Below the pieces are notes generated by a model. It saw only the letters and a list, made by a program, of their open reading frames with translations. It was not told the DNA's origin and made no database searches. A stretch of DNA of 64,000 bases from Candidatus Melainabacteria bacterium 17Bon1m (GTDB taxonomy: Bacteria; Cyanobacteriota; Vampirovibrionia; Obscuribacterales; Obscuribacteraceae), in NCBI GenBank assembly GCA_032128875.1, contig JAVLKG010000008.1:64001-128000 (forward strand), in the 5' to 3' direction. A program made the position numbers and the translations under genes. Positions 82 to 15,385 of the stretch are shown here, piece after piece (position 1 is the stretch's first letter; each line of letters opens with the position of its first letter).

Positions 82-155
82 TAAAAACAGGTCGCATGCA
101 ATGCGACCCCACGCTGAGAATTAAAAACAGGTCGCGTGCAACGCGACCCCACGCT
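82..155 (-). repeat. Two tandem REP-like palindromic units (40-bp period)
   Basis: Units at 82-115 and 122-155. Cores GGTCGCAT-GCA-ATGCGACC and GGTCGCGT-GCA-ACGCGACC differ by a compensatory change. On the minus strand each is headed by GTGG. Confidence 0.8.
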
Positions 156-2359
156 TAATATCGGATTTGCACGTGATGCTCTGGTCGGGTGAGCTGGTCT
201 TTCAATTGTTCGGCAGCGGCTTTAGTAACGCCGGATTCCTGCATGTCGATAAACTGCAAGTCTCTCATCTGTGACAACGGCACAGTCACGGAATTGTCGA
301 GCTTGGTGAATCGCAGCTGCAGTTGTGACAAGTTGGGCAAATACTTCGGAAAGAGCGCAAGAGTTTTCGCATCTATCGAACAGCTGTTCAAACTCAAGCT
401 CTTCAGACGTTGAATCTTACCCAAAAGCGGTATCCACGAGGCATCAACCTGAGAACCATTCAAATTCAAATACTCGAGAGAGGGCATACCGCACAAAGAC
501 TTGATACCGTCAGTAGTGACACTATTAAATCCAAACTCAAGCGCTATCACATGCTGTAGTCGTCCAATTGCAGCAATTCCAGTTGGACTCAGGCTGCAAT
601 TAGAAGCATCTACAAACTGCAAAGATGGCAATGATTCAAGATTCTTTATTCCATCACCTCGAAGGCTTTTGCAAGCTCTAAAGCCGAGGCGCTGCAACTG
701 TTTCATCGACGCAATATCTTTGAAGACATCATCAGTCACCGGCGCGCCGGAGAAAAAGAGCGATCGAAGCTGCAGCCCGGATATGGATTTTAAGCCATCG
801 TTAGTAATTTCATTGCCCTGAACGGATAGGTTCTTCAAAGAGGTAATTTCCGCAAGATATTTCATGCCTCGATCTGTAAGCCCGGTGCGGTCCAGGTGCA
901 GCTCTAGCAGTTCGTGCAATGTACGTAAGTTAGATATCCCGGCGTCGGTTATATTTGTAGAGTCCAAGGATAAAAAGTGCAGACTTTTTTGAGTGGGCAA
1001 AATCGCCAGACTCTTGTCCGTAATCTGTGAATTGGATACATCAAGGGCGCTGATACCTAAATCGGTGTTGAAATACTCACTGAAAAACTTATCGTCCATA
1101 CGCTTAGGATCGAGATAGCGCACCATCTTAGTACGCTCCAGCGTCAAGAGTTTATCGAGTCTTGCAGACTCCTCCAACTGCGCAGACGACACGCGACCCA
1201 GCATCGCTTTTCCAATCATATTTGTCAGCATGATCGAACTTCCTGCTACTCCCAGAAGGCTAAAACCGGCAGCAAGTGAAATCAGCACCAGCTGCCGCTG
1301 TTCGCGATTCCACCTCATTTGCCGGGCACCTGTCGCATCCAATTTTTCGGGGCGACCGACCAGCGCTTGCACCTTTGTGAGATCATCGAGCATCAATTTC
1401 ATCGATTGATATCGATCAGCAGGATCTTTCGCGAGAGCTTTAGCCATGAGGTCTTCCAACGGCTGTGGAAACTTCATGTCCGGTCTGACTTCAGAAAGTG
1501 TGCGCGCTGGTTTTGAAATTTGGTCGACAATAACGGAGACCATAGATGAGCCTGAGAAGGGCGGTTTGCCAGTGATCGCTTCAAATAGAACACAGCCCAG
1601 GGCGTAAATGTCGGAGCGTGCATCAAGCTCGCCGCCCTGACATTGCTCTGGGCTCATGTACTGCGGAGTGCCCAACAACTCGCCAGTTTGCGTAACCTTT
1701 GTCGAATCGCTTTCCAATATTTTGGCGATGCCGAAATCAACAATCTTCACTTCCGGAAATGCACAATCGTAATCTGAAACCATGATGTTACTCGGCTTAA
1801 GATCGCGGTGTAGGACATTTCGATCATGAGCATGTTGCAATGCATGGGCAAGTTGAATGGCGATGTTAATCGCAGCCTCCACAGACAGCGGGCCATTTCG
1901 CAATATCTCTGAAAGCGGCTTTCCATCAATGAAATCCATGACCATGTAAGGCTGGCCGTGCTCTGACACACCATAGTCATGCACAGCGATGATACATCGG
2001 TGTGACAGTCCGCTGACCGCCTCCGCTTCTTGCTGAAACCGCCGTGTTATCACGTCCGACATCAAATGGCTGTGCAGCATTTTTATAGCGACCAAGCGTT
2101 TTAATACCGGATTTTTAGCCTTGTAAATCACACCCATGCCGCCGGAGCCAATGAATTCCAGGAATTCATAATTGCCGACCAGCTTGCGTCCCTCACCGAG
2201 CGTGTCGTCGATTATTGTGCCGTCCTTCGGACAGGCAGCAACAGTGAGAGGTACATTCAATCCGCACTTTGGACAGACACGACTGGCAGGTGTTTGTACA
2301 GGAGTCTTCGGCTCATTGCCAGACTGCGTTGAGATGGTGACCGCATCTTCGTCCTGCAC
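155..2359 (-). CDS. Hanks-type Ser/Thr protein kinase with N-terminal Zn-ribbon-like motif, one TM helix and C-terminal leucine-rich repeats
   Basis: GSGGMGVIY, VAIK, HRDLKPSN, DFG, GTPQYMSPEQ; CPKC...CPKDG; hydrophobic segment LVLISLAAGFSLLGVAGSSIML; many LxxLxL repeats. Confidence 0.95.
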   Translation of the reverse strand: MQDEDAVTISTQSGNEPKTPVQTPASRVCPKCGLNVPLTVAACPKDGTIIDDTLGEGRKLVGNYEFLEFIGSGGMGVIYKAKNPVLKRLVAIKMLHSHLMSDVITRRFQQEAEAVSGLSHRCIIAVHDYGVSEHGQPYMVMDFIDGKPLSEILRNGPLSVEAAINIAIQLAHALQHAHDRNVLHRDLKPSNIMVSDYDCAFPEVKIVDFGIAKILESDSTKVTQTGELLGTPQYMSPEQCQGGELDARSDIYALGCVLFEAITGKPPFSGSSMVSVIVDQISKPARTLSEVRPDMKFPQPLEDLMAKALAKDPADRYQSMKLMLDDLTKVQALVGRPEKLDATGARQMRWNREQRQLVLISLAAGFSLLGVAGSSIMLTNMIGKAMLGRVSSAQLEESARLDKLLTLERTKMVRYLDPKRMDDKFFSEYFNTDLGISALDVSNSQITDKSLAILPTQKSLHFLSLDSTNITDAGISNLRTLHELLELHLDRTGLTDRGMKYLAEITSLKNLSVQGNEITNDGLKSISGLQLRSLFFSGAPVTDDVFKDIASMKQLQRLGFRACKSLRGDGIKNLESLPSLQFVDASNCSLSPTGIAAIGRLQHVIALEFGFNSVTTDGIKSLCGMPSLEYLNLNGSQVDASWIPLLGKIQRLKSLSLNSCSIDAKTLALFPKYLPNLSQLQLRFTKLDNSVTVPLSQMRDLQFIDMQESGVTKAAAEQLKDQLTRPEHHVQIRY

Positions 2360-2368
2360 AACCAGCCC

Positions 2369-4660
2369 TCAGAATTTTACTTCAGCGCCATGCAATGCCT
2401 TTTTTAGAGATTCCTGAGAGGGTCTGCCGACCGCGGCGCCCTGGACATCGACGGATTCCAGAGTCTTTAACTTGCGTAATTCCAGAACACCCTTTTCTGT
2501 CACCCGGGTATTGCTCAAATCGAGGTGCTTGAGAGCGGGAAGTTTTGCGGCGATGAGAGCTAATGTTGCATCGTCGATGTCGGAATTTGCCAGCACCAAT
2601 GTGTCCAAAGCCGGCAATTTGACTACTTCTTCCAACCTAGCCGGAGAAAAATTGGTAAAACTCAAGTCGAGTGTTTTCAAATTTGGCAAAGTCTCCAGTG
2701 CTGTAATCGCACCATCCTCGATTTTGCAACCGGACAAGACGAGTTTGCGCAGACTGGCTATTTGTGCGACTTCATCGAGATCTTCTACAGCGATTTCGCT
2801 GTCTTTCAGATCCAGCCATTCCAATTGTTTCGCTGCTGCCAAAGCAAGGAAATTCTTTTCCCCTTTAGGAGAATACTCTCCTATTTCTAAGTGTTGTAGC
2901 TTGGGAAACTTGCTTATTGTTGTTAGTCCCTCAGCGCTAACGCGGGTTCCGGTCAAAAACAAGTCATGCAGGTTTGCGCTCGGAATCGCAGCGATGCCTT
3001 TATCTCCGACGCTTGTGTGCTCTACGGAAAGTTTTTCGAGCGTGGTCATATTGGTGAGGTGCTTGATGCCGGCATCAGTAACAGCGGTTTTGTCGAGGTA
3101 CAAACGCTCAACTTTTGGCATTGTGGCTATGTATGTGAGATCGTTGTCTTTGATTTTCGTATTGTCCAAATGAATCGAGACTACGTTCTTTTGAAGCGAA
3201 ATGAATGGGATGCCAAAGCTGGACACGTCATTGTCGGCAAGTTCCATTTTCGTTATGCCTGTATCCACATCAAAGAATGTGCGAAGCAGCTCATCATCAG
3301 CCTTGCTCATGTTCAAATACTGAACGAGCTTTCTGCGCTCGTTCATTTTGGCAATGGGCAAATTGTTGACCGCTGCCAGCGGATTACTCAAAATCGCCCT
3401 GGTTATGTGGGTTGTCTGAGAATCATGCACAACCTTGATGAATGAAATTGAAGTGACAGCAACTGTGCCAAGGGTGGCAAGTGAGCCAAGCATCAGCAAA
3501 AAGAGATTGCGCTGCTCTTTATTCAAGCGCATGACACGCATTTTGGACCAGGCAGTCGAACTCTGTTGTGCAAGAACTTTGTGCACGTCGATTAGATCAG
3601 TTGTCAGCTCAGACATGGACTGATAGCGGTCGGCCGGGTCTTTGGCGAGCATTTTGGCAATAATGTCTTCCAGGTGCCCAGGGAATAGCATGTCAGGGCG
3701 GGTTTCTTTCAATGTGCGCGGGGCGGTATTCATCTGGTCGACAATAACCGAAACCATCGAATGCCCAGCAAACAACGCTTTTCCTGTCATGGCTTCGAAC
3801 ATCACGCAACCAAGTGAATAGATATCCGAGCGGGCATCCAGGTTGCCCCCGCGGCACTGCTCAGGGCTCATGTACTGTGGCGTTCCGATCAGTTCGCCGG
3901 TTTGAGTCATGCGAGTTTTTTCGGATTCGAGAACTTTGGCAATACCGAAGTCGACTATTTTTACTTCCGGTTCAGCTTTTTCAAGGTTGGTGACCATGAT
4001 ATTGCTGGGCTTCAAATCTCGGTGCAAAACGCCCCTGTCATGCGCGTGCTGAAGCCCTTCAGTGAGCTGAATAATAATCTTGAGCACTGCTTCTATGTTA
4101 AGCGGAGTCGCTTGCAAAACATCCGAAAGCGGCTTGCCTTCTACGAAATCCATGACCATATAGGGCTGACCATGCTCGGACACACCGTAGTCGTGAACAT
4201 GAATAATGTTGCGGTGATCGAGCGAGCTGACGGCCTCCGCTTCTTGCTGAAAGCGCTTGTTGATCGCATCCGAAACAAGATGCCCATGCAACATTTTTAT
4301 CGCTACAAGACGGTTTAAAACCGGGTGACGCGCTTTGTAAATGACGCCCATGCCGCCGGCGCCGATAAACTGGATAAACTCATATTTGCCAACCAGCTGA
4401 ATTCCAGGCTGTCCATGAACGGTAATTGGCGTGCCGTCTTTCGGACAAATGCCCACGGACATCGGCAACTCCAAACCGCAAGAATGGCAAGCGTGAGTAC
4501 CGGGTGGCGGAGTTTGTTGCCCGGCGATTGTGAAGTTTAGGGTCTTAGGATCGTCGATTTCCACTGTACTAATCCAGTACGAAGCTGGAGACTCCTGTGC
4601 CTGTTTTGTACCCAGGCATGCGGCTAATGAGACTGCCTGTGCAGGCGTAATATCAGCCAC
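2369..4660 (-). CDS. Paralogous Ser/Thr kinase (Zn-ribbon, kinase, TM, LRR)
   Basis: GAGGMGVIY, HRDLKPSN, DFG, GTPQYMSPEQ; CHSC...CPKDG; TM then LRRs; start uncertain. Confidence 0.95.
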   Translation of the reverse strand: MADITPAQAVSLAACLGTKQAQESPASYWISTVEIDDPKTLNFTIAGQQTPPPGTHACHSCGLELPMSVGICPKDGTPITVHGQPGIQLVGKYEFIQFIGAGGMGVIYKARHPVLNRLVAIKMLHGHLVSDAINKRFQQEAEAVSSLDHRNIIHVHDYGVSEHGQPYMVMDFVEGKPLSDVLQATPLNIEAVLKIIIQLTEGLQHAHDRGVLHRDLKPSNIMVTNLEKAEPEVKIVDFGIAKVLESEKTRMTQTGELIGTPQYMSPEQCRGGNLDARSDIYSLGCVMFEAMTGKALFAGHSMVSVIVDQMNTAPRTLKETRPDMLFPGHLEDIIAKMLAKDPADRYQSMSELTTDLIDVHKVLAQQSSTAWSKMRVMRLNKEQRNLFLLMLGSLATLGTVAVTSISFIKVVHDSQTTHITRAILSNPLAAVNNLPIAKMNERRKLVQYLNMSKADDELLRTFFDVDTGITKMELADNDVSSFGIPFISLQKNVVSIHLDNTKIKDNDLTYIATMPKVERLYLDKTAVTDAGIKHLTNMTTLEKLSVEHTSVGDKGIAAIPSANLHDLFLTGTRVSAEGLTTISKFPKLQHLEIGEYSPKGEKNFLALAAAKQLEWLDLKDSEIAVEDLDEVAQIASLRKLVLSGCKIEDGAITALETLPNLKTLDLSFTNFSPARLEEVVKLPALDTLVLANSDIDDATLALIAAKLPALKHLDLSNTRVTEKGVLELRKLKTLESVDVQGAAVGRPSQESLKKALHGAEVKF

Positions 4661-7822: not shown

Positions 7823-8377
7823 ATGAAAAAACTGATCGAATACCGAGCCTTCCCCTGGGTGGTGGCTCTGGTGGTCGGCGCTGTGATGGGTTTTCTGGTG
7901 GGTCCGCTGGTGACAGCCTTGACTCATCACGCAGCCCTTCCTTTCGCCTGGCAGTGCGTCCTCGGCATCATCGCCGCGGGCGTCACCGGCGGGGTGATCG
8001 AAAATGCGCTCTCTCGCCGTCCGGTCGCGGTCGACCCTGATCGCAAGCCGGGACTGGTCGACAAAGTCTTCGGAGCCGGCCGCGTTTACTACGTGGTCGA
8101 GCCCGACAAGGACGGTCGCATCCAGATCATCGTCAGCGCCAATGGCATCGGCGCCAGGGCTTTCGAAGACAAGCTCGTGCCGATGCTGAAGAAGATCGAG
8201 GGCATGGAATGGGGCAACCCAATCAAGCCCAGCCAGAGCGCGCCGGCAAAGGGGCTGGTCGCTCAACCCGCGCCGAAAGGCGACGGGATCATCGTCGGGA
8301 CCATCCTGGCCGAGGCGAGCCTGGCCAAGACAATCCCGCAAATCGAAGAGTGCCTCGGCTCGGCCGAGCCTCTTTGA
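7823..8377 (+). CDS. Hypothetical membrane protein (2 N-terminal TM helices)
   Basis: GGAG RBS, strong codon bias, hydrophobic N-terminus; partly similar in layout to 25600-26244. Confidence 0.75.
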   Translation: MKKLIEYRAFPWVVALVVGAVMGFLVGPLVTALTHHAALPFAWQCVLGIIAAGVTGGVIENALSRRPVAVDPDRKPGLVDKVFGAGRVYYVVEPDKDGRIQIIVSANGIGARAFEDKLVPMLKKIEGMEWGNPIKPSQSAPAKGLVAQPAPKGDGIIVGTILAEASLAKTIPQIEECLGSAEPL

Positions 8378-8493
8378 TGCACAACGACTATGCCTGAGCC
8401 GACGCCCGGGCCTCGTGAAGAAGCTTGCCACAAGCCAGCTTCCATCGAGGTTCGGGTCGAGGCGAAGGCGCCAGAGAGAGCGAGAAAAATCTC

Positions 8494-8517
8494 GTAGGGG
8501 CGCATCGTATGCGCCCT
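8494..8517 (+). repeat. GTAG-headed REP-like palindrome
   Basis: GTAG-GGGCGCAT-CGT-ATGCGCCC-T. Confidence 0.7.
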
Positions 8518-8544
8518 GCCTCTCTCAAACTGGAAAGGCAGCTT

Positions 8545-9096
8545 ATGAAAACACATCTAGCAAACGTTCTGGACCTTGAATTGAGCTGCTATCCCGACGG
8601 AAAGTTTCCCGACGACGAGCGGCAAGAAATCATCGAGGTCGGCTTGACCACGGTCGATCTCCACAAGATGGAGATTGTCGCCGTGCGCAGCATCCCGGTG
8701 ATACCGACGATGTCCTCCATCAGCCCGTTTTGTGCTGAGCTGACCGGATGGACGCAAGCGGCGCTCAACAAGCAAGGTGTGCCCTTCGAAGAAGCGGTTC
8801 GCCGCCTCGTCGAAAAGCACGGTTCCAAAAACCGGCTGTTGGTCACGGATTCCGCTGGTGATCGCAAGTTCTTCGATTGGCAGTGTGCAATGTTCGGCAA
8901 GGCGTCGCCTTTCGGCGACTACGAGCAGAACGTCTCGGTGCTCTTCTCCATCTACACGGAAATCTTCCAGAACGTGTCTTTGGACGACAAGCTGGAAAAA
9001 CTCGGACTCAAGTTCGAGGGACGCCGGCACCGCGCCGACAGCGACTCAATGAACATCGCCCGGCTGCTCATCGAACTGAAGCGCCGCATGCGTTGA
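8545..9096 (+). CDS. DEDDh 3'-5' exonuclease (ERI-1/KapD-like)
   Basis: VLDLELSC, EIIEVG, LTG, HRADSD; start moved to ATG 8545. Confidence 0.85.
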   Translation: MKTHLANVLDLELSCYPDGKFPDDERQEIIEVGLTTVDLHKMEIVAVRSIPVIPTMSSISPFCAELTGWTQAALNKQGVPFEEAVRRLVEKHGSKNRLLVTDSAGDRKFFDWQCAMFGKASPFGDYEQNVSVLFSIYTEIFQNVSLDDKLEKLGLKFEGRRHRADSDSMNIARLLIELKRRMR

Positions 9097-9149
9097 AAAA
9101 CGCTCTGCGACGCAGCAGCAAACGAGGTCTCTTAATGACCAGTGAAAGA

Positions 9150-9197
9150 ACAGACTGTGCGGCATAAACAACCGCACAGTCTGTCATCTTTCTTTCT
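9150..9197 (+). terminator. Probable intrinsic terminator
   Basis: 13-bp stem ACAGACTGTGCGG/CCGCACAGTCTGT followed by pyrimidine tract. Confidence 0.6.
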
Positions 9198-9913
9198 CGT
9201 CCAGCCCAACTACTGCATATCATAAGGCACCAGATACGCCACCACACAAACAGCTATTTTTTGAAGTCAAAGGTGCGGCTGTACTTCGGATTGCTTTTCG
9301 ACCCAGCCACTGTGACGAACCTTGCGTTTCTACTGCGCATCGAAAGCGGTTGTAGGCGTTTTATTAGAGCTGCCGCCAGCTCGCGAAGGGATTAACAGCC
9401 TCTCACAAACGCGCTAGCCGTTGCGGTGCTGTTTAATGCACAGACCGATTTGGTCGCCGACCCGAGAACCTCACCCAGGCTGCGCTAGTGCTTCACAGCT
9501 TCAAATTTCGACGTACTTTCCCCCCTGCGCTCATTAGCGCAATTTCATTAAAAGCTACCCCAAAAGGAGGGTGGTCAAGAACTGAGAAGTACTACCACCA
9601 CTCATGATCGAGGTGTAGATCTGCTTATTTGGTTTTACTCTGACACTGACTTTTAGTCATACGGCTATTAGAGCTACCTAAGGTTGCTAAATGTCTTACG
9701 TAAGAGTTAGGGTCAAAGCACGTTTTATAAACACTCTTTCATTCCGGAAAAACCCAACCACTCTTCGTTTCAACTTTCATCCAACACCAATTCAGCCCTG
9801 CCAGTTCAGCTCTTTTGCTGTGGCGGGGTTTTCCGTCTCTTGTTGCAGCCCTCACTTAGAGCATTTTGACGCTCAGTTTGGGACCGCAACTACCAGACCT
9901 GAATGAGAACAAC

Positions 9914-10663
9914 ATGGCGAATCTACCCCTGACAGTTCGCTGGTACATGTTCGTGAATGACATCATTCGCGTCTATGCCAGATTGATCCTCAGGCGCCTC
10001 GACAAAATAGACTTCGGAGCTCTGCTCGGTGGACCCGGTTCAGGAAAAGGCACCCTTGGCGTTCGCCTCGGACCTCTCCTGCGACTGATTCTGCTCGGCA
10101 TGGGCGACGTTCTCAGGCGCGAGGATATCCAGAAAGAGTACGGGGACAGACTAGCTGCGATGAGCAAAGGCGGCTTGTTGCCCGACTCCCTGGTTCACGA
10201 AATTCTCGAGCGAGAGCTCACCAAGCCTGCATATGCTCGTGGCGCCATCTTCGATGGAATTCCGCGAACGCTGAGGCAAGCGCTTCTTCTGGAGCGTTCG
10301 CTCGCATGGCGGGGTCTTCGTTTGAACTGGGTGGTGCTGCTCGATATCGATGAAGAAGAGCTCGTGGAGCGACTGACGCATCGACGCACCTGTCCCAACC
10401 CCAATTGCCGCCGCACCTATCACCTCATCAGCAATCGTCCGAAAGTCGAGGGAATCTGCGATGAGTGCAAAACTCCGCTGATTCAGCGCAAGGATGACGT
10501 GCGTGAGGTGATTGTGGAGCGGCTTCGCAAATACCGGGAGGAAATCACTCCTCTCTGTAGCTTCTACAAGGCGCGCGGCGTTTTGTATGAAGTAAAGCCG
10601 GCCAAAGGGAGCACTCCGGAAGAAGTGTTCAACTTGGCCAAATCTGTCCTAACGAGCAACTAG
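9914..10663 (+). CDS. adk: Adenylate kinase family protein (divergent, Cys-type LID)
   Basis: GGPGSGKGT, GDVLR, DGIPRT, RRTCPNPNC...CDEC, QRKDD; start moved to ATG 9914. Confidence 0.85.
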   Translation: MANLPLTVRWYMFVNDIIRVYARLILRRLDKIDFGALLGGPGSGKGTLGVRLGPLLRLILLGMGDVLRREDIQKEYGDRLAAMSKGGLLPDSLVHEILERELTKPAYARGAIFDGIPRTLRQALLLERSLAWRGLRLNWVVLLDIDEEELVERLTHRRTCPNPNCRRTYHLISNRPKVEGICDECKTPLIQRKDDVREVIVERLRKYREEITPLCSFYKARGVLYEVKPAKGSTPEEVFNLAKSVLTSN

Positions 10664-10673
10664 GAGAAAGACC

Positions 10674-10895
10674 ATGGCTCGCACTTTCCATGTCCTCGCC
10701 GATGACGGCAGCATCGACAAGCGTGCAACCCGCGCTCGCCGCCTGCACGGACCCGGTGCCAAGCGCGTTTCCACGCGTCGCAGCACCATCTGGTCCAACA
10801 TCTCCGGCCTCGGTCCCGACGGCAAGGTGCGTCGCGCCAACGGCAGCATCGACCACGCGGCAACGCGTGAAGTCGAGCGCGGCTGGCACGACTAA
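10674..10895 (+). CDS. Small basic repeat protein 1 (2 DGSID-type motifs)
   Basis: AGGAG RBS overlapping the adk stop; FHVLADDGSIDKRATRARRLHG and NGSIDHAATRE. Confidence 0.8.
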   Translation: MARTFHVLADDGSIDKRATRARRLHGPGAKRVSTRRSTIWSNISGLGPDGKVRRANGSIDHAATREVERGWHD

Positions 10896-11195
10896 GCAGT
10901 GACTGGCGTCGAAGCGAAGGAGAAGGTTGCCCACCCGATCCCCGCTTCGGCGCGCAGCCTGCGGTTTGCTCAAAAATTTCGACGGTGAGTGCAGATACCT
11001 GGTTTGCACTTGCCCGGAAGACGCTGACTCTTGCGATGCCGGCAACGGCTCCACGCAGGTGGTCGGCGTATGTGGAGTACCGGTTCGCATGTTGCGTTCC
11101 GGGTTGGTTACAAAACCGACTAAGGGAGCCGCTTACAGGAAGCAGCTTACCTGGTCATGACAGCCCACTTGGGCGAAATGGAGAACTGTTATGAC
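10896..11195 (+). ncRNA. Candidate structured RNA, copy A
   Basis: Colinear with 11596-11990; helices 10906-16/10943-53, 10984-96/11002-14 (loop ACCTG) and 11154-63/11186-95; compensatory changes between copies. Confidence 0.65.
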
Positions 11196-11595
11196 GAACA
11201 TCAACACCACCAATGGCAGCAACGACCTCATCCCCGGCACCAACCTGACCTGGGCTGACGCCGCCGCGATGCACAAGGACTACCTGCGCGACCAGCGTTG
11301 CAAGGGTACCCGCCGCAGCCGCCGCACCCGCACGAACCGTTCGAGCAAGAACGACGGGTTCTACGTGCTGGCGGAGGACGGCAGCATCGACAAGCAGGCC
11401 ACCCGCGAGCGCCGCCTCTTCGGACGCGACGACCGTCAGGTGACCGTGCACCGTGCGCCGCAGGTCGACACGCTGACTTCCGATTGGGACGGGTCGTACT
11501 CGTTCCGCCCGGACGGCAGCATCGACAAGGTCGCCACCCGCGAGCGTCGCCTCTTCGGTGAGCCGGAGAGCTACCTCGCGAGCCTGCTGAACTAA
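11191..11595 (+). CDS. Small repeat protein 2 (2 DGSIDKxATRERRLFG motifs)
   Basis: GGAG RBS, codon bias, two motif copies, Arg-rich linker. Confidence 0.85.
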   Translation: MTNINTTNGSNDLIPGTNLTWADAAAMHKDYLRDQRCKGTRRSRRTRTNRSSKNDGFYVLAEDGSIDKQATRERRLFGRDDRQVTVHRAPQVDTLTSDWDGSYSFRPDGSIDKVATRERRLFGEPESYLASLLN

Positions 11596-11990
11596 GCAAG
11601 TGAAGTTAGCACCGGAGCGTTGGAAGGGCTGCCCGCCTGACCGCGCTCCGGTGCGCTTCTTGCTGTTCGCCCCAGAATTCACGGCAGAGCATTGACGCGC
11701 ATCAGCGCTCGGCTTTGCCCAAAGAGTTTCGAAGCACAAGCAGCTACCTGAGCTGTGCGTGCCCGGAAACGCTGATAGCGGAGATGCCTGCAGCTCTTCG
11801 CTCCAGCGTTTGCAGCGTCACCGGGTGGTGGCGTTGCAAAACCATGACGTGGATGTTTCTGCGTTGTGGAAAGCCGGTTCACTTGTTGTGAGCCGGTTTA
11901 TTTGGTGAACCCGACTAAGGGAGACGCACTCAGGATGCGCCTTACCTGGTCATGACAGCCCACTTGGGCACATGGAGAAACTGTTATGAC
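11596..11990 (+). ncRNA. Candidate structured RNA, copy B
   Basis: Helices 11609-19/11644-54, 11740-45/11751-56 (loop ACCTG) and 11949-58/11981-90; 29 nt identical to copy A (11941-69 = 11146-74). Confidence 0.65.
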
Positions 11991-12495
11991 GAACATCGAA
12001 AACACCACTGGCAACAGCAGCATCAGCGGCGCCGAGCACAAGCACTGGCTCCGTGAACTGCGCATCGATCGCAGCCTCGGTCTCGACCGCGGTGTGCGCA
12101 ACGGCAGCAAGAAGCGTCGGAACAACGAGGCGACTCGTCCGTTCCACGTCCTGGCCGCCGACGGCAGCATCGACAAGCGCGCCACCCGCGAACGCCGCCT
12201 CTTCGGACCGGACGCCACCCCCGTGGTCACCTCCGGCTCGGACGAGAACATCGGCGCCGACTGGGATGGCCGCTACGTCCTGAAGGACGACGGCTCCATC
12301 GACAAGCAGGCCACGCGCGAGCGTCGGCTGTTCGGTGAGCCCGAAGACCTGTACGGCCGTAACGCTGCCGACTACTTCTTCGGCGACGAAGAGGGCGATG
12401 CCGACAGCAGCTTCCACGTCATCGACGAGGACGGCTGCATCGACAAGCAGGCCACGCGCGAGCGCCGGCTGTTCGGTTCCAGCCTCTGGAACTGA
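11986..12495 (+). CDS. Small repeat protein 3 (3 DG(S/C)IDKxATRERRLFG motifs)
   Basis: GGAG RBS, same MTNI start as protein 2, three motif copies. Confidence 0.85.
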   Translation: MTNIENTTGNSSISGAEHKHWLRELRIDRSLGLDRGVRNGSKKRRNNEATRPFHVLAADGSIDKRATRERRLFGPDATPVVTSGSDENIGADWDGRYVLKDDGSIDKQATRERRLFGEPEDLYGRNAADYFFGDEEGDADSSFHVIDEDGCIDKQATRERRLFGSSLWN

Positions 12496-12567
12496 TACCT
12501 GAAGGGCGTCGGCACTCGCGGACTTGATGCGCAAACGCATTAAGCTCTGCGAGCACCGGCGCTGGTA
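12496..12567 (+). other. Long imperfect hairpin closing the repeat-protein array
   Basis: TACC/GGTA, GGCGTCGG/CCGGCGCT, CTCGCGGA/TCTGCGAG, CTTGATGCG-CAAA-CGCATTAAG. Confidence 0.55.
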
Positions 12568-12752
12568 GCCTTGAAAGGCGAGGGTCCTTCCCCTCGTCTT
12601 TCATTTTTAGGGCATTACCTACTGTATGCCATCGTAATTTGAGCAAGAAAAAGAAGCAGGCGACCTGTCCGAGCATTTTCAGCTCGGGACAAATCGCCCA
12701 CTTCAAGACCATTCTCGCTAGTCGTTGTTACGACTAACGGGAATGCAAGGGA

Positions 12753-13334
12753 TTACTTGCGCTTCTGCGTGCGAGGCTTGTCGTCGAAACACGCAGTGCA
12801 CACCTTGGTGCTCGGCTTCAGCCCGCCCAGGATCTTCGCCTCATCTTGCACTCGGCAGAGAATCTGAATCTCTTCGAGCTTGAGGCTGTCACCCTCCAGC
12901 TGCGCGAAGACGTGGGCGCGACAGGCAAGCGCGCGAACGAGTTCGCCGATGTCACCGCTGAACTGCTCGCCCGTGAGCATCCGTGCGATCTTGCGGCATT
13001 CCTGTTTTGCGGCTTGCTTGAGCGCAAGAGAAAAAATACCGCAGGCCACCCGAATATCTCGCCAGGAAGATTTCGGGAAGCCGGCGAAGATCAGCTCGGC
13101 ACGCGCGGCGACGGTATTCTCCGGAGGCGACACACGTTCGTCTGCGCCCGCCGGGAGCATGTTGATCGCGTCATACAACGGGCCCAGACCGGCACGCGCA
13201 TTGAGCACGACGAAAAGATCGATCTTGTCGGGGTCGAACTCGTGTTCGTGAAAAACGCTCAGACAGGGAATCACCTTGATTTCGACGGACGAGCGAAGAG
13301 CAGCGATTGAAGCGGGTTTCTGATTGTCAGTCAT
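12753..13334 (-). CDS. Hypothetical protein
   Basis: 193-aa ORF with AGGAG RBS; no recognised motif. Confidence 0.65.
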   Translation of the reverse strand: MTDNQKPASIAALRSSVEIKVIPCLSVFHEHEFDPDKIDLFVVLNARAGLGPLYDAINMLPAGADERVSPPENTVAARAELIFAGFPKSSWRDIRVACGIFSLALKQAAKQECRKIARMLTGEQFSGDIGELVRALACRAHVFAQLEGDSLKLEEIQILCRVQDEAKILGGLKPSTKVCTACFDDKPRTQKRK

Positions 13335-13792
13335 GACTTTCTCCTATTCTCGTGACTCGTTTCACAGCCGGAACTGCGGTTGGGAAGCTAGAAAAAGCGT
13401 TGCAAATGGAGCTTGCGGGTGCTGCGAAAAAATTCCGGTCGGTGAAAACGAGATGTGGCAAAACCCTATGAAATCGGGCTGGGAAAGCGCAATCGAACCA
13501 AAGTATGATTGCCGATCTCGCGCTAAGTCGACCGCGATAAATGACTGGTTGCTCATGCACTGGCGAACGAACTTCAATGCTCAAAGACCGCACTGCGCCA
13601 GCCCCGGTTCTCGACAAGAGCTAACTGCAACCCTTGAAGACCAATACTTTGGGACTATGATGCAAGCTGCGCCATAATACCCAGGTATGATTTCGCCGCG
13701 CGAAGCTTTTCGCAAGTTAGCGCCAGCTCTTGACGGGCATGCAAAACCCGTCTTGCCTCGATTTTCTATTAGAATGGCTTTGTGTGGAAGGA

Positions 13793-15385
13793 ATGGACGC
13801 CGTGCGCGAACATCAGATCGTCATCAGCCTCAAACCTGAGCAGTTTCAGGAAGTGCAAAAACAAGCTCGGGCAGCTGGAGCTCAGTCTGTTGGCGCCTTC
13901 GTGCGGCAAAATCTGCTCAACTTCCTGGGATTGGAAGAATCGATCAACGCCGGTAAAGCCTCTCAAATGTCTCCCTCTGTCCAAGCTGACCCGGACTGGC
14001 GGTTTATCGCCGGAGAATTGCGCCGCCTGCACCGCGAATTGAAAGTCTTGTCCAGTGAGGCAACTGTATCGAACACCCTGGTGACCGACATAGCCGGTTC
14101 GAACAGTTCGATCAGTGGTCCTACCACTGCGACCGGAGGTCCTCTTCTGGCTTCCACAGTGGCTTTGAGCGAACCTTACAGAGAGCCGGTGCCGGAATAC
14201 AGCCAGCCGGCACAGCATGAAAACTTCCTTACAGATGGCGCGCCGATAGCTGTCGATGACTATTCGGACAATCTCGACGATTCGCTCATTCTTCCCCCAG
14301 CGCATGGTATCACCGGCGGCGGAACGACTCCTTTCTTCCAGACTCCCACGATGCCCAGTCGATCGCCTTTCGGCATGCCGATGTCTTCAGGACTTCCACT
14401 TTCATCGCCTTTCTCGCAGCATACGTTCATGCCGAATATCTCTCCTCTGCCGAGCGATTTGGGCATAGCGGCTCAAGCCCCGGCAAAGCAAGAGTTCACC
14501 GTCGACGAAGGAGATCCGGTCGAAACGACGAAGATTGAGGCAAAACCACAGCAGCCGGCGGAAACGCAACCAATAGCGCAACCCACAGCAACTGAGACCG
14601 CTGCAGCCACGCCCCAAACATCAGCCCAGAGCGCCTCTCAGCTAATAACTCAACCGACATCGCAAGCTGCGTTTCAAACCGCATCTCAAGACCCTCAAGT
14701 TACACAAGCTGCGCAACCCGTTTCACAACCAGACCAACGACCTGCAGCAGCAGCCCAGCTTCCTCCTGCAAATGCTCCCCAGCAACCTCCGGCAGTTCAG
14801 CAACCTGTTGCCCCACCGCAAGCAGCAGCACCTGTACAACCGGAAGCGCCGACTATCACACCTGTGCAAACTCGTTCACAGATTGCTTCTCAAACTCCAG
14901 CTGAGCAGCCAGGAGCATTCGCGCCACAGAAAGACGACATGGAAGTTCTTGCAGACAGAGCGTTTGCAATTTCACCAAGACTTGGCGCAATTGAGCCGGA
15001 AGTTACACTGCAACCGGCACAAAGCCGAAGCTTCGCCGACACTCTTGAAGAATTGCTCGACGCCGGCCTAATCAACCAGGTTTTGTCTCAGACCGAAGTT
15101 GAAGAGGACAATCCTTACGCCGGAGAAGTTGAAGCACCTCCGGAGGATGACCTGGTTCAGGTAATCGTTCAGGAAGTCGACGTACCCTCGCCCGACGCCA
15201 CAGATAGCAAAAACGCCGAAGAGTCCGATAACACGAGCAATAGCGAGCCTGAGGACAGTCAGAATGATCCGCCTGCCGCGATTCAACATGACCCTCCGCC
15301 ACCGCCTCGCCCAATTGGCGGCGCCGATCAATCTGGCGAAGACGAGCCACCCAAGCCACCTCCGCGCCGCAGAAAGTTGATGTAA
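13793..15385 (+). CDS. Hypothetical protein: RHH/MobC-like N-terminus and long Pro/Gln/Ala/acidic disordered region
   Basis: HQIVISLKPEQFQEVQKQARAAGAQSVGAFVRQNLL; low-complexity remainder; start moved to ATG 13793. Confidence 0.75.
   Translation: MDAVREHQIVISLKPEQFQEVQKQARAAGAQSVGAFVRQNLLNFLGLEESINAGKASQMSPSVQADPDWRFIAGELRRLHRELKVLSSEATVSNTLVTDIAGSNSSISGPTTATGGPLLASTVALSEPYREPVPEYSQPAQHENFLTDGAPIAVDDYSDNLDDSLILPPAHGITGGGTTPFFQTPTMPSRSPFGMPMSSGLPLSSPFSQHTFMPNISPLPSDLGIAAQAPAKQEFTVDEGDPVETTKIEAKPQQPAETQPIAQPTATETAAATPQTSAQSASQLITQPTSQAAFQTASQDPQVTQAAQPVSQPDQRPAAAAQLPPANAPQQPPAVQQPVAPPQAAAPVQPEAPTITPVQTRSQIASQTPAEQPGAFAPQKDDMEVLADRAFAISPRLGAIEPEVTLQPAQSRSFADTLEELLDAGLINQVLSQTEVEEDNPYAGEVEAPPEDDLVQVIVQEVDVPSPDATDSKNAEESDNTSNSEPEDSQNDPPAAIQHDPPPPPRPIGGADQSGEDEPPKPPPRRRKLM

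Follow-up and report, generated by a model that had tools for sequence, protein, structure and literature searches.

Organization of the array

The window analyzed here, a stretch of 64,000 nucleotides (nt) from Candidatus Melainabacteria bacterium 17Bon1m (contig JAVLKG010000008.1, positions 64,001 to 128,000), carries an adenylate kinase-like gene (adk-like) followed on the same strand by three small open reading frames (ORFs), P1, P2, and P3. P1 lies directly behind the kinase gene, spacer A separates P1 from P2, spacer B separates P2 from P3, and a long hairpin lies past P3 (Table 1). The original prediction, made from the letters of the sequence, read this layout as a candidate new system, an array of repeat proteins alternating with a conserved structured RNA. 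All ORFs and spacers were found where it had placed them. We report that the spacers descend from the 3' third of the adk-like gene, and that they form structured leaders in which the start codons of P2 and P3 are predicted to be paired.

The adk-like protein matches the Pfam families ADK (PF00406; 1.3e-29, 103.8-105 bits against a cut-off of 26.8) and ADK_lid (1e-13, 51.4 bits), and scores 0.9 bit below the cut-off of TIGR01351 (167.1 bits, cut-off 168). It is the second adk of the genome, the canonical gene (190 bits) being located on another contig. Judged from its sequence, the P-loop (GGPGSGKGT), the nucleoside monophosphate (NMP)-binding core, and a LID with four cysteines are present, and the alignment of orthologues revealed an N-terminal extension of ~35 amino acids (aa). 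The start of the gene was placed at the ATG at 9911 because the orthologues begin MANLPL.

Repeat proteins encoded by the array

Regular-expression searches and alignments recovered the seven motif copies originally counted, with the unit [FY]xVxxxDGSIDKxATRERRLFG (RLFG repeat) occurring twice in P1, twice in P2, and three times in P3; the second unit of P1 is degenerate. The claim that the proteins share little beyond this motif did not hold. P2 and P3 are 45% identical over 133 aa (E 2e-31) and have their N-terminus in common, while P1 is 60% identical to P3 over 65 aa, and by these alignments the three are clear paralogues that share more than the motif. P1 is 92% identical to its orthologue in a related genome. 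The ratio of nonsynonymous to synonymous substitution rates (dN/dS) was 0.22 for P1, 0.70 for P2, and 0.44 for P3, which argues that the genes are real and fast-evolving outside the motif. The selection first ascribed to the basic peptide motif is thus seen on the proteins, with rapid change outside the motif. Antisense ORFs of 194 and 196 aa overlap P2 and P3 at 11155-11739 (-) and 11950-12540 (-), respectively; it is the sense ORFs that carry the conserved motif and a dN/dS below 1.

The AlphaFold2 model of P3 was of low confidence, with a predicted local distance difference test score (pLDDT) of 59.6 and a predicted template modelling score (pTM) of 0.22. In this model each repeat forms a beta-bridge and a 10-residue helix (pLDDT 70-80), and the linkers are disordered. 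The small proteins are probably multivalent binders of a partner linked to the kinase, carrying two to three units of beta-bridge and basic helix on disordered chains.

No known family was found for these proteins. Searches of P1-P3 against Pfam returned only sub-threshold chance matches (DUF6009, 16.4 bits against a cut-off of 28.6; MVL, 12.6 bits against a cut-off of 25), and NCBIfam returned none. No PADLOC model matched the adk-like protein, P1, P2, P3, or the neighboring 193-aa protein, and the exonuclease encoded upstream matched only the generic DEDDh model. ESM Atlas gave no usable match with P3 or the L090 protein as query, and a homologue search with the L097 protein returned the query alone. 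A precursor array for ribosomally synthesized and post-translationally modified peptides, e.g., with repeated cores of the graspetide kind, was also considered; a Pfam scan of the neighbors at 155-23289 detected no enzyme of such a pathway (a maturase such as an ATP-grasp ligase, cyclase, or protease).

A profile of the repeat unit gave 12 matches among 1.84 billion representatives, one of which (P0029) appears to be spurious. Four others (P0025, P0026, P0028, and P0030) are proteins of 402-583 aa with two to four repeats of F[VI]VxxxDG[ATS]IDREATRE; their similarity to the RLFG unit, due to homology or to convergence, covers only its first ~18 residues. We take their C-terminal DVNxDG...DAL motifs to be dockerin-like, and their N-terminal LESRQL motif is presumably typical of Planctomycetes. 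A search of 5.8 billion clusters turned up 22 relatives of P3, and those few that bear a name belong to 'Candidatus Obscuribacterales' or to Melainabacteria metagenome-assembled genomes (MAGs). P3-type matches were identified in nine of 41 related genomes, almost all of the window's genus (g1: seven of 12, in addition to the own genome). The RLFG family is thus a narrow orphan, and neither it nor the leader RNA was found described in the literature at the level of listings and abstracts.

Collection and distribution of the leaders

Spacers A and B align end to end, as claimed, with a mean column identity of 75% and two extra blocks in B. Immediately upstream of both P2 and P3 lies the invariant 18-mer ACCTGGTCATGACAGCCC, which was used to collect related loci. 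In the species-genome collection it occurred in 18 stretches, of which eight were on MAG contigs titled Melainabacteria or Obscuribacterales, in up to three tandem copies; the other 10 were single chance matches in unrelated taxa without the downstream start context. A metagenome scan added 11 stretches, six of them genuine. In total, we collected 23 distinct upstream regions, comprising 22 leaders and one intact adk end.

The same architecture was observed everywhere: the adk-like gene, in some cases P1, and then one to three modules of leader and small ORF, in line with the proposal that the duplicated unit is RNA plus ORF. The ORF behind a leader encodes either an RLFG-repeat protein or a protein of ~105 aa that we call family B, in which AGRLHGEDV stands in place of the RLFG motif. 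The family B proteins (L025, L030, L035, L045, L050, and L058) are ~101-107 aa long, read ...DPSETEGVDFFDEI...AGRLHGEDV..., occur in up to three tandem copies, and have no Pfam match. In genome G007 (L012/L022), where P3 is 99% identical, the whole module of leader A and P2 is missing compared with L042 and the window, so that P1 is followed by one leader and P3; gain and loss between close relatives therefore affect modules as a whole.

In the 7.55-Mb assembly of the own genome (35 contigs), no further copies of P1-P3 or of the spacers were found. A covariance model of the 3' 122 nt of the leaders (R1) gave two matches in this genome, and a DNA search with the spacers returned the two copies of the locus, the other 15 listed matches being chance hits of 15-25 nt. 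A dispersed repeat, such as a miniature inverted-repeat transposable element (MITE) or a repetitive extragenic palindromic (REP) element, was ruled out, as the spacers occur only at this locus in the genome.

Origin of the leaders from the 3' end of adk

The alignment of upstream regions showed that one locus, L024, has no separate 'leader' in front of its first small ORF: the adk-like coding sequence itself takes this place. The intact adk-like ORF runs from the LID cysteine motif across the conserved box and through ...KGSTPQEVLNLVMTALSGN, and its stop codon lies just before the Shine-Dalgarno (SD) sequence of the small ORF. All 21 other leader queries matched the last ~90 nt of the L024 adk (E 2.5e-11 to 5.6e-26), and several matched its LID region too. 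Translated searches (blastx) of the leaders recovered relics of the kinase, such as PENADARDACKGSLVQR aligned with PQVADICDACKGPLIQR, in shifted frames and with stops; in leader A the relics are split over two frames with an in-frame stop.

The 5' half of the leaders gave a consistent picture. A DNA profile built from this half of 21 leaders, with both adk rows removed, matched nt 507-645 of the L024 adk (E 6.9e-8) and nt 511-633 of the window's own adk-like gene (E 0.024), in both cases collinearly. Weaker collinear matches were obtained in two more adk genes, and 61 kb of the window taken as background gave none better than E 0.2. Model R1, representing the other end of the leaders, identified the junction between the real adk 3' end and the next ORF in the window (37.3 bits, E 5.6e-7), and found the adk 3' junction at the correct position in the genera g47, g46, g7, and g9 as well. 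By descent, these comparisons show, the spacers are decayed and frameshifted copies of the 3' third of adk, from the LID to the stop codon (~last 250 nt). The duplicated unit is therefore the adk 3' third together with the small ORF, and the RNA is not the independent new partner of the proteins that it was first taken for.

Direct BLAST of the window's spacers against its own adk-like gene, as protein and as DNA, gave nothing significant, and the relationship was for this reason hidden from a reader without search tools; the homology surfaced only via the L024 adk, the profiles, and the covariance model. A conserved upstream ORF within the leaders was considered and rejected, as the copies differ by indels whose lengths are not divisible by three, and the relic frames end variously. 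By their type-specific indels, leader A and leader B can each be followed as orthologues into other species, and the duplication is therefore not recent.

Fold and covariation of the leaders

Compared with dinucleotide shuffles, the single-sequence folds gave z-scores of -6.25 for spacer A and -8.69 for spacer B, and none of 100 shuffles was as good. RNAalifold, run on 21 leaders and two adk ends, predicted 49 pairs. The consensus consists of helix P1 (loop ACCUG), a variable middle part with one to three hairpins, helix P3, helix P4 (loop CAGGA), and helix P5 with a nested helix P5a, and the single-sequence minimum free energy (MFE) folds reproduced these helices in both leaders (Table 1). 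The hairpins follow one another in linear order, interrupted by large variable insertions, and no junction was found.

The conserved base pairing claimed for the spacers was borne out in this alignment. Of 1117 cells, 92.9% were paired, compared with 34-42% when the 3' partners were slid by one to three columns, and 27 of the 49 pairs had changed on both sides, compared with 4-13 when slid. Column shuffles reached the observed values in 0 of 500 cases for four of five measures and in 1 of 500 for the fifth. Four covarying helices were counted in all, and helices P1, P3, and P4 carry the covariation, which agrees with the predicted selection on the RNA fold. The loop CCUG of helix P1 might form a kissing pair with the loop CAGG of helix P4, both sides being invariant; a conceivable fifth base pair of this contact shows no covariation. 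Over their 3' 122 nt, the leaders share 59-80% identity with copies from genomes in which only 41-53% identity is left at the four-fold sites of adk, and the 3' domains contain 49 invariant columns. In the closest comparison, K of the leaders was 0.14-0.18 against a dS of 0.22-0.37. As far as these alignments go, leader conservation is above the neutral expectation. The RNA, like the proteins, matches no known family: cmscan of Rfam 15 over 9000-14000 (E<=10) returned four matches, all of 18-21 bits against gathering scores of 36-124.

A predicted helix over the start codon

Helix P5 pairs GUCAUGAC(AG) with (CU)GUUAUGAC, which places the AUG inside the helix and GGAG in an internal loop of 12-13 nt; the nested P5a is GCCC-N4/5-GGGC. 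In partition function calculations, the probability that the AUG is paired was 0.96 at P2 and 0.98 at P3. Helix P5 is invariant in all 22 leaders. In L063 the nested P5a is lost, and P5 is kept with the SD sequence in its loop. At the adk junction of g47, nine of the 10 P5 pairs are kept with two changes, and the adk stop codon lies inside the P5 loop.

The adk paralogue and its downstream ORF in other genera

The parent sequence is itself structured. The adk 3' third gave a z-score of -4.60 (10379-10688; -3.91 by a second script) in the window and of -4.38 in L024:1583-1892(-), compared with -2.49 to +0.60 for 15 other coding windows of 310 nt. A hairpin of the helix P3 type reappears, in differing sequences, in the adk genes of five genera, with seven to 11 of 11 pairs formed in an alignment that was fitted to the model and leans towards it. 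This looks like a structured RNA embedded in the adk coding sequence. The structure seems older than the duplication, and seems to have been retained and reinforced once the coding constraint was lost.

Relatives of the paralogue (E<=1e-40) were identified in 50 of 104 genomes of the family, and 22 loci from other genera were inspected. In 10 of these, the start of an ORF of 104-152 aa falls in the range from -3 nt (overlapping as ATGA) to +15 nt relative to the adk stop codon. A hydrophobic ORF at +11 was observed in one locus, a 75-aa ORF at +39 in another, and an ORF of ~295-309 aa located 64-142 nt downstream of adk in six; the remaining four had no ORF of at least 45 aa or were cut. In L097, from another genus, the ORF overlapping the adk stop codon as ATGA is of the RLFG type. 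The small ORFs of other genera belong to no Pfam family, and are tied to the RLFG proteins through a chain of BLAST matches: WTY-type proteins of genus g1 match a g41 protein (E 1e-22 to 2e-27), the g41 protein is linked weakly to g9 through a short motif (E 4e-4), and proteins of g9, g47, g46, and g6 match one another (E 1e-8 to 1e-21).

Transcript context and neighboring genes

A scan of 9300-12800 found no sigma70-like promoter, although host promoters may differ from the sigma70 consensus, and the leaders may contain internal promoters. The hairpin and T-run past P3 is the probable end of the operon (Table 1). The lack of a sigma70-like promoter together with the single strong terminator after P3 suggests one operon from the adk-like gene to P3. 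The hairpins following the stop codons of P1 and P2 show compensatory changes between copies (e.g., GAAGCG/CGCUUC vs GGAGCG/CGCUCC), and a weak terminator-like call was obtained within the second of them (11642-11655). Contigs from three RNA-library runs of one sample all break at 9157-9177, with loose adaptor-like ends in one run; these breaks are probably an artefact of assembly or library.

Table 1. Positions in the window of the adk-like gene, the small ORFs, and the RNA elements of the array.
Feature	Position	Strand	Description
adk-like gene	9911-10663	+	P-loop, 4-Cys LID; divergent adenylate kinase paralogue
Structured adk 3' third	10379-10677	+	source of the leaders; counterpart of helix P3 at 10562-10588, of helix P4 at 10605-10635
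P1	10674-10895	+	73 aa; two repeat units; 10 nt past the adk stop, without leader
Spacer A	10896-11190		295 nt, between P1 and P2
Hairpin at P1 stop	10896-10962	+	MFE fold; homologous to post-P2 hairpin; without U-tract
Leader A	10977-11194	+	decayed copy of adk nt ~500-753
Leader A, helices	P1 10977-11020; P3 11078-11104; P4 11123-11152; P5 11155-11194; P5a 11163-11174		variable hairpins between P1 and P3
Leader A, initiation site	SD 11179-11182; AUG 11191		SD GGAG unpaired; AUG paired
P2	11191-11595	+	134 aa; RLFG repeats, two units; Arg-rich linker
Spacer B	11596-11985		390 nt, between P2 and P3
Hairpin at P2 stop	11596-11663	+	MFE fold
Leader B	11727-11989	+	second decayed adk 3' copy
Leader B, helices	P1 11727-11768; P3 11872-11899; P4 11918-11947; P5 11950-11989; P5a 11958-11969		three extra hairpins between P1 and P3
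Leader B, initiation site	AUG 11986		AUG paired
P3	11986-12495	+	169 aa; RLFG repeats, three units
Long hairpin past P3 stop	12505-12563	+	z -7.9 for 12493-12625
Intrinsic-terminator-like hairpin and T-run	12572-12612	+	13-bp stem, then TTTTT

Directly upstream of the adk-like gene lies a gene for a KapD/RNase T-type DEDDh 3'-5' exonuclease (8425-9096, +). A 193-aa ORF (12753-13334, -) is convergent with the array and has no match in Pfam, NCBIfam, or PADLOC. Also downstream of the array lies the gene of a 551-aa protein (13730-15385, +) with a ribbon-helix-helix (RHH)-like N-terminus (REHQIVISLKPEQF...) and a long tail rich in Pro, Gln, and Ala, for which a NikA-like match was weak (E 0.03). 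An RHH-type gene lies downstream of the array on contigs reaching that far, in seven listed loci with the N-terminus REHQIVIS.... Two adjoining genes at 155-4660 (-) encode Ser/Thr protein kinases of 734 and 763 aa with C-terminal leucine-rich repeats. Pfam searches of the neighbors between 155 and 23289 assigned Ser/Thr kinases with leucine-rich repeats, Mur-ligase-like, patatin, RNase T-type exonuclease, AAA/R3H, and decarboxylase proteins, and gave no match for four ORFs.

Interpretation of the leaders

On balance we favor the reading that the leaders are inherited translational-coupling structures, derived from adk relics and kept as cis-acting elements of intercistronic control or stability. 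It builds on the adk homology, the fold, the covariation, the start-codon pairing, and the distribution reported above; the steps concerning ancestral coupling and the present function of the leaders are those that we infer. The locus would be an expanded form of a two-gene module conserved in Melainabacteria of the Obscuribacteraceae type, namely a divergent adenylate kinase paralogue with a tightly, probably translationally, coupled small protein gene. In its ancestral form, translation of the small ORF may have depended on ribosomes finishing adk, by coupling through RNA unfolding. In the window's genus, a segment that spans adk from its LID-coding part onward and the small ORF up to its end was duplicated in tandem, giving the order adk, P1, adk relic and P2, adk relic and P3. 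The relics lost their reading frame, and seem to have kept and strengthened their pre-existing mRNA secondary structure, to become the present intercistronic leaders of 295-390 nt, strings of hairpins whose last predicted helix buries the AUG with the SD sequence in a loop. Since the relic is untranslatable, no upstream translation reaches P5, and the leaders should hold translation of P2 and P3 low or conditional. In the duplicated modules they would act as cis-acting repressive or insulating elements, and P5 may be opened by melting or by a trigger acting in trans, candidates being a protein, a helicase, temperature, or a ligand. The hairpins probably stabilize the intercistronic RNA too. 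We regard the locus as a real and lineage-restricted feature, and not as a new ribonucleoprotein system. It is a clear case in which the coding relic of a partial gene duplicate lives on as a conserved structured leader that is predicted to sequester the start codon, attached to an orphan protein family coupled to a second adenylate kinase-like enzyme.

Several observations weigh against this reading. All leader copies come from one genus of MAGs of the Melainabacteria/Obscuribacterales type; they are therefore related sequences, and the counts are not independent. For the closest pair of genomes, the identity of the spacers (0.84-0.87) exceeds that of synonymous sites (0.69-0.81) only slightly. 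P5 and P5a are invariant in the leaders, so that their pairing rests on the conservation of both strands and on the g47 and L063 variants, and such invariance could equally mark a protein-binding or DNA-level site. At real junctions between adk and a small ORF, the probability of the AUG being paired was 0.09-0.76 (0.49-0.76 in L024 and g47), and at the window's own junction between the adk-like gene and P1 it was 0.15, with the start-codon helix not formed; structure-dependent coupling in the ancestor is therefore plausible, not general. Inspection by eye found no alternative (anti-sequestor) pairing of the P5 strands. Contigs from public RNA libraries on 8200-13800 cover everything, including the convergent genes, and transcription, transcript ends, and operon structure can therefore not be read from them.

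A bolder reading, which we consider unlikely though worth keeping in view, sees in the 3' third of the adk mRNA an RNA domain with a function of its own, embedded in coding sequence and freed by the partial duplication as a stand-alone translational switch that responds to a factor in trans. The leaders would then open in response to the Adk-like kinase, to some feature common to the small proteins, or to a signal of the cell, and would gate multivalent RLFG-repeat proteins working with the kinase. If true, the module would be new among regulatory systems, and the locus would document a riboregulator that arose from coding sequence.

That the array is chiefly a processing or stability module appears improbable. 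The hairpins would then be RNase III/E sites or protective stem-loops, yielding monocistronic units of different stability, and the pairing of the start codon would be secondary. Each ORF is indeed followed by a stable hairpin without a U-tract, the leaders are linear hairpin series, and a single terminator serves the whole array. However, such hairpins rarely need an invariant sequence, whereas the 18-nt box and the 3' strand of P5 are invariant in 22 of 22 leaders, and P5 covers the AUG specifically.

We also find it improbable, by a similar reckoning, that the locus is an autoregulatory ribonucleoprotein system, with the basic RLFG proteins binding their own leaders (e.g., at the ACCUG and CAGG elements or at P5) and so controlling their own translation, one of two models offered in the original prediction. 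P1-P3 are Arg-rich, largely disordered, and multivalent, the leaders contain invariant single-stranded and helix sequences that might be protein sites, and the start codon is sequestered. But one invariant leader core precedes both the RLFG proteins and the differently built family B proteins, which argues against leader-specific autoregulation, and homologous ORFs occur without the leader, namely P1 directly after adk and the L097 ORF overlapping the adk stop codon. The sequence of the leaders is moreover accounted for by descent from adk. For the second model, a ribonucleoprotein module, no supporting evidence was obtained.

A metabolite- or signal-sensing riboswitch, with helices P1-P4 as aptamer and P5 as expression platform, is very unlikely. 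The leaders resemble one in being long, conserved, covarying RNAs with conserved unpaired stretches (GUGAAACCGACAAAGGGA and GGAAACGCUGA), complementary loops in helices P1 (CCUG) and P4 (CAGG), and a sequestered start codon. Against it stand the missing Rfam match at E<=10, the independent hairpins with large variable insertions, the invariant loops whose possible fifth pair does not covary, the descent from a coding region, the absence of metabolic annotation among the regulated genes, and the lack of an evident alternative conformer.

We regard it as highly improbable that the spacers are functionless relics, that is, pseudogene fragments that are still alike because they are young or because gene conversion has homogenized them. 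They are decayed adk copies, their number differs between close genomes (the P2 module is missing in G007), and the closest pair is only a little more conserved than synonymous sites. On the other side, the compensatory changes in 27 of 49 pairs and the 92.9% of paired cells, together with the 49 invariant columns, the 18-mer among them, in a set of genomes nearly saturated at adk four-fold sites, point to constraint; leaders A and B are each orthologous across species, making the duplication old, and the z-scores of the leaders exceed those of the parent coding region. A DNA-level element, in which the palindrome GTCATGAC and its partner would serve as operator or promoter, e.g., for the downstream RHH protein, can practically be dismissed: the box is invariant and does not covary, and an RHH-type gene is syntenic in seven listed loci, but the half-sites are ~30 nt apart and complementary as RNA including a G-U pair, the other four helices covary as is not required of DNA sites, and the element descends from a coupling junction inside the operon.

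For the preferred reading, that of inherited coupling structures, the locus provides an example of a coding sequence turned regulatory leader. The origins of structured cis-regulatory RNAs are seldom traceable; here the parent (the intact adk 3' third), intermediates (adk ends with the box in frame), and derived leaders coexist, which opens the path to direct tests. Two further points stand out at the locus: the unusually strong and covarying structure of an mRNA coding region, and a conserved, uncharacterized pairing of a second adenylate kinase-like enzyme with orphan disordered repeat proteins in non-photosynthetic relatives of the cyanobacteria. Should the leaders prove inert, the locus would still warn that what looks like a 'conserved structured RNA' separating paralogous genes may be a duplicated piece of a gene.

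Comparison with known systems

The adk-like protein resembles adenylate kinases of PF00406/TIGR01351 in its P-loop, NMP-binding core, and 4-Cys LID, and differs from them as a divergent second copy with an N-terminal extension, a probably coupled orphan small ORF behind its gene, and an unusually structured 3' third of its mRNA. Small basic proteins encoded behind structured leaders are likewise a feature of ribosomal-protein autoregulatory leaders; unlike those, the window-type leader is common to differently built proteins, and homologous proteins occur without it. With riboswitch-type and other structured cis-regulatory leaders the window's leaders have in common a long covarying RNA directly upstream of the gene, with a last helix that occludes the initiation codon. 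They differ in having no Rfam family and no apparent junction-type aptamer, in their coding origin, in being repeated within an operon, and in their restriction to one genus.

There are parallels, too, with translational coupling by RNA unfolding, as described in PMC12548453 for rpmI-rplT, MS2 coat-lysis, and f1 genes VII-IX. As in the cases outlined there, the intact junctions of L024 and g47 have a helix between the upstream coding end and the downstream initiation region, and an upstream stop codon just 5' of the downstream SD sequence. P5, the putative inhibitory helix at the downstream start, is predicted in all leaders; its 5' strand is part of the uninterrupted adk ORF in L024 and g47. 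In the window's leaders, by contrast, this strand lies outside any translated ORF, the relic being frameshifted with stops, and upstream translation can therefore not open the helix; these elements lie 295-390 nt from the stop codon of the preceding real ORF and have gained extra hairpins.

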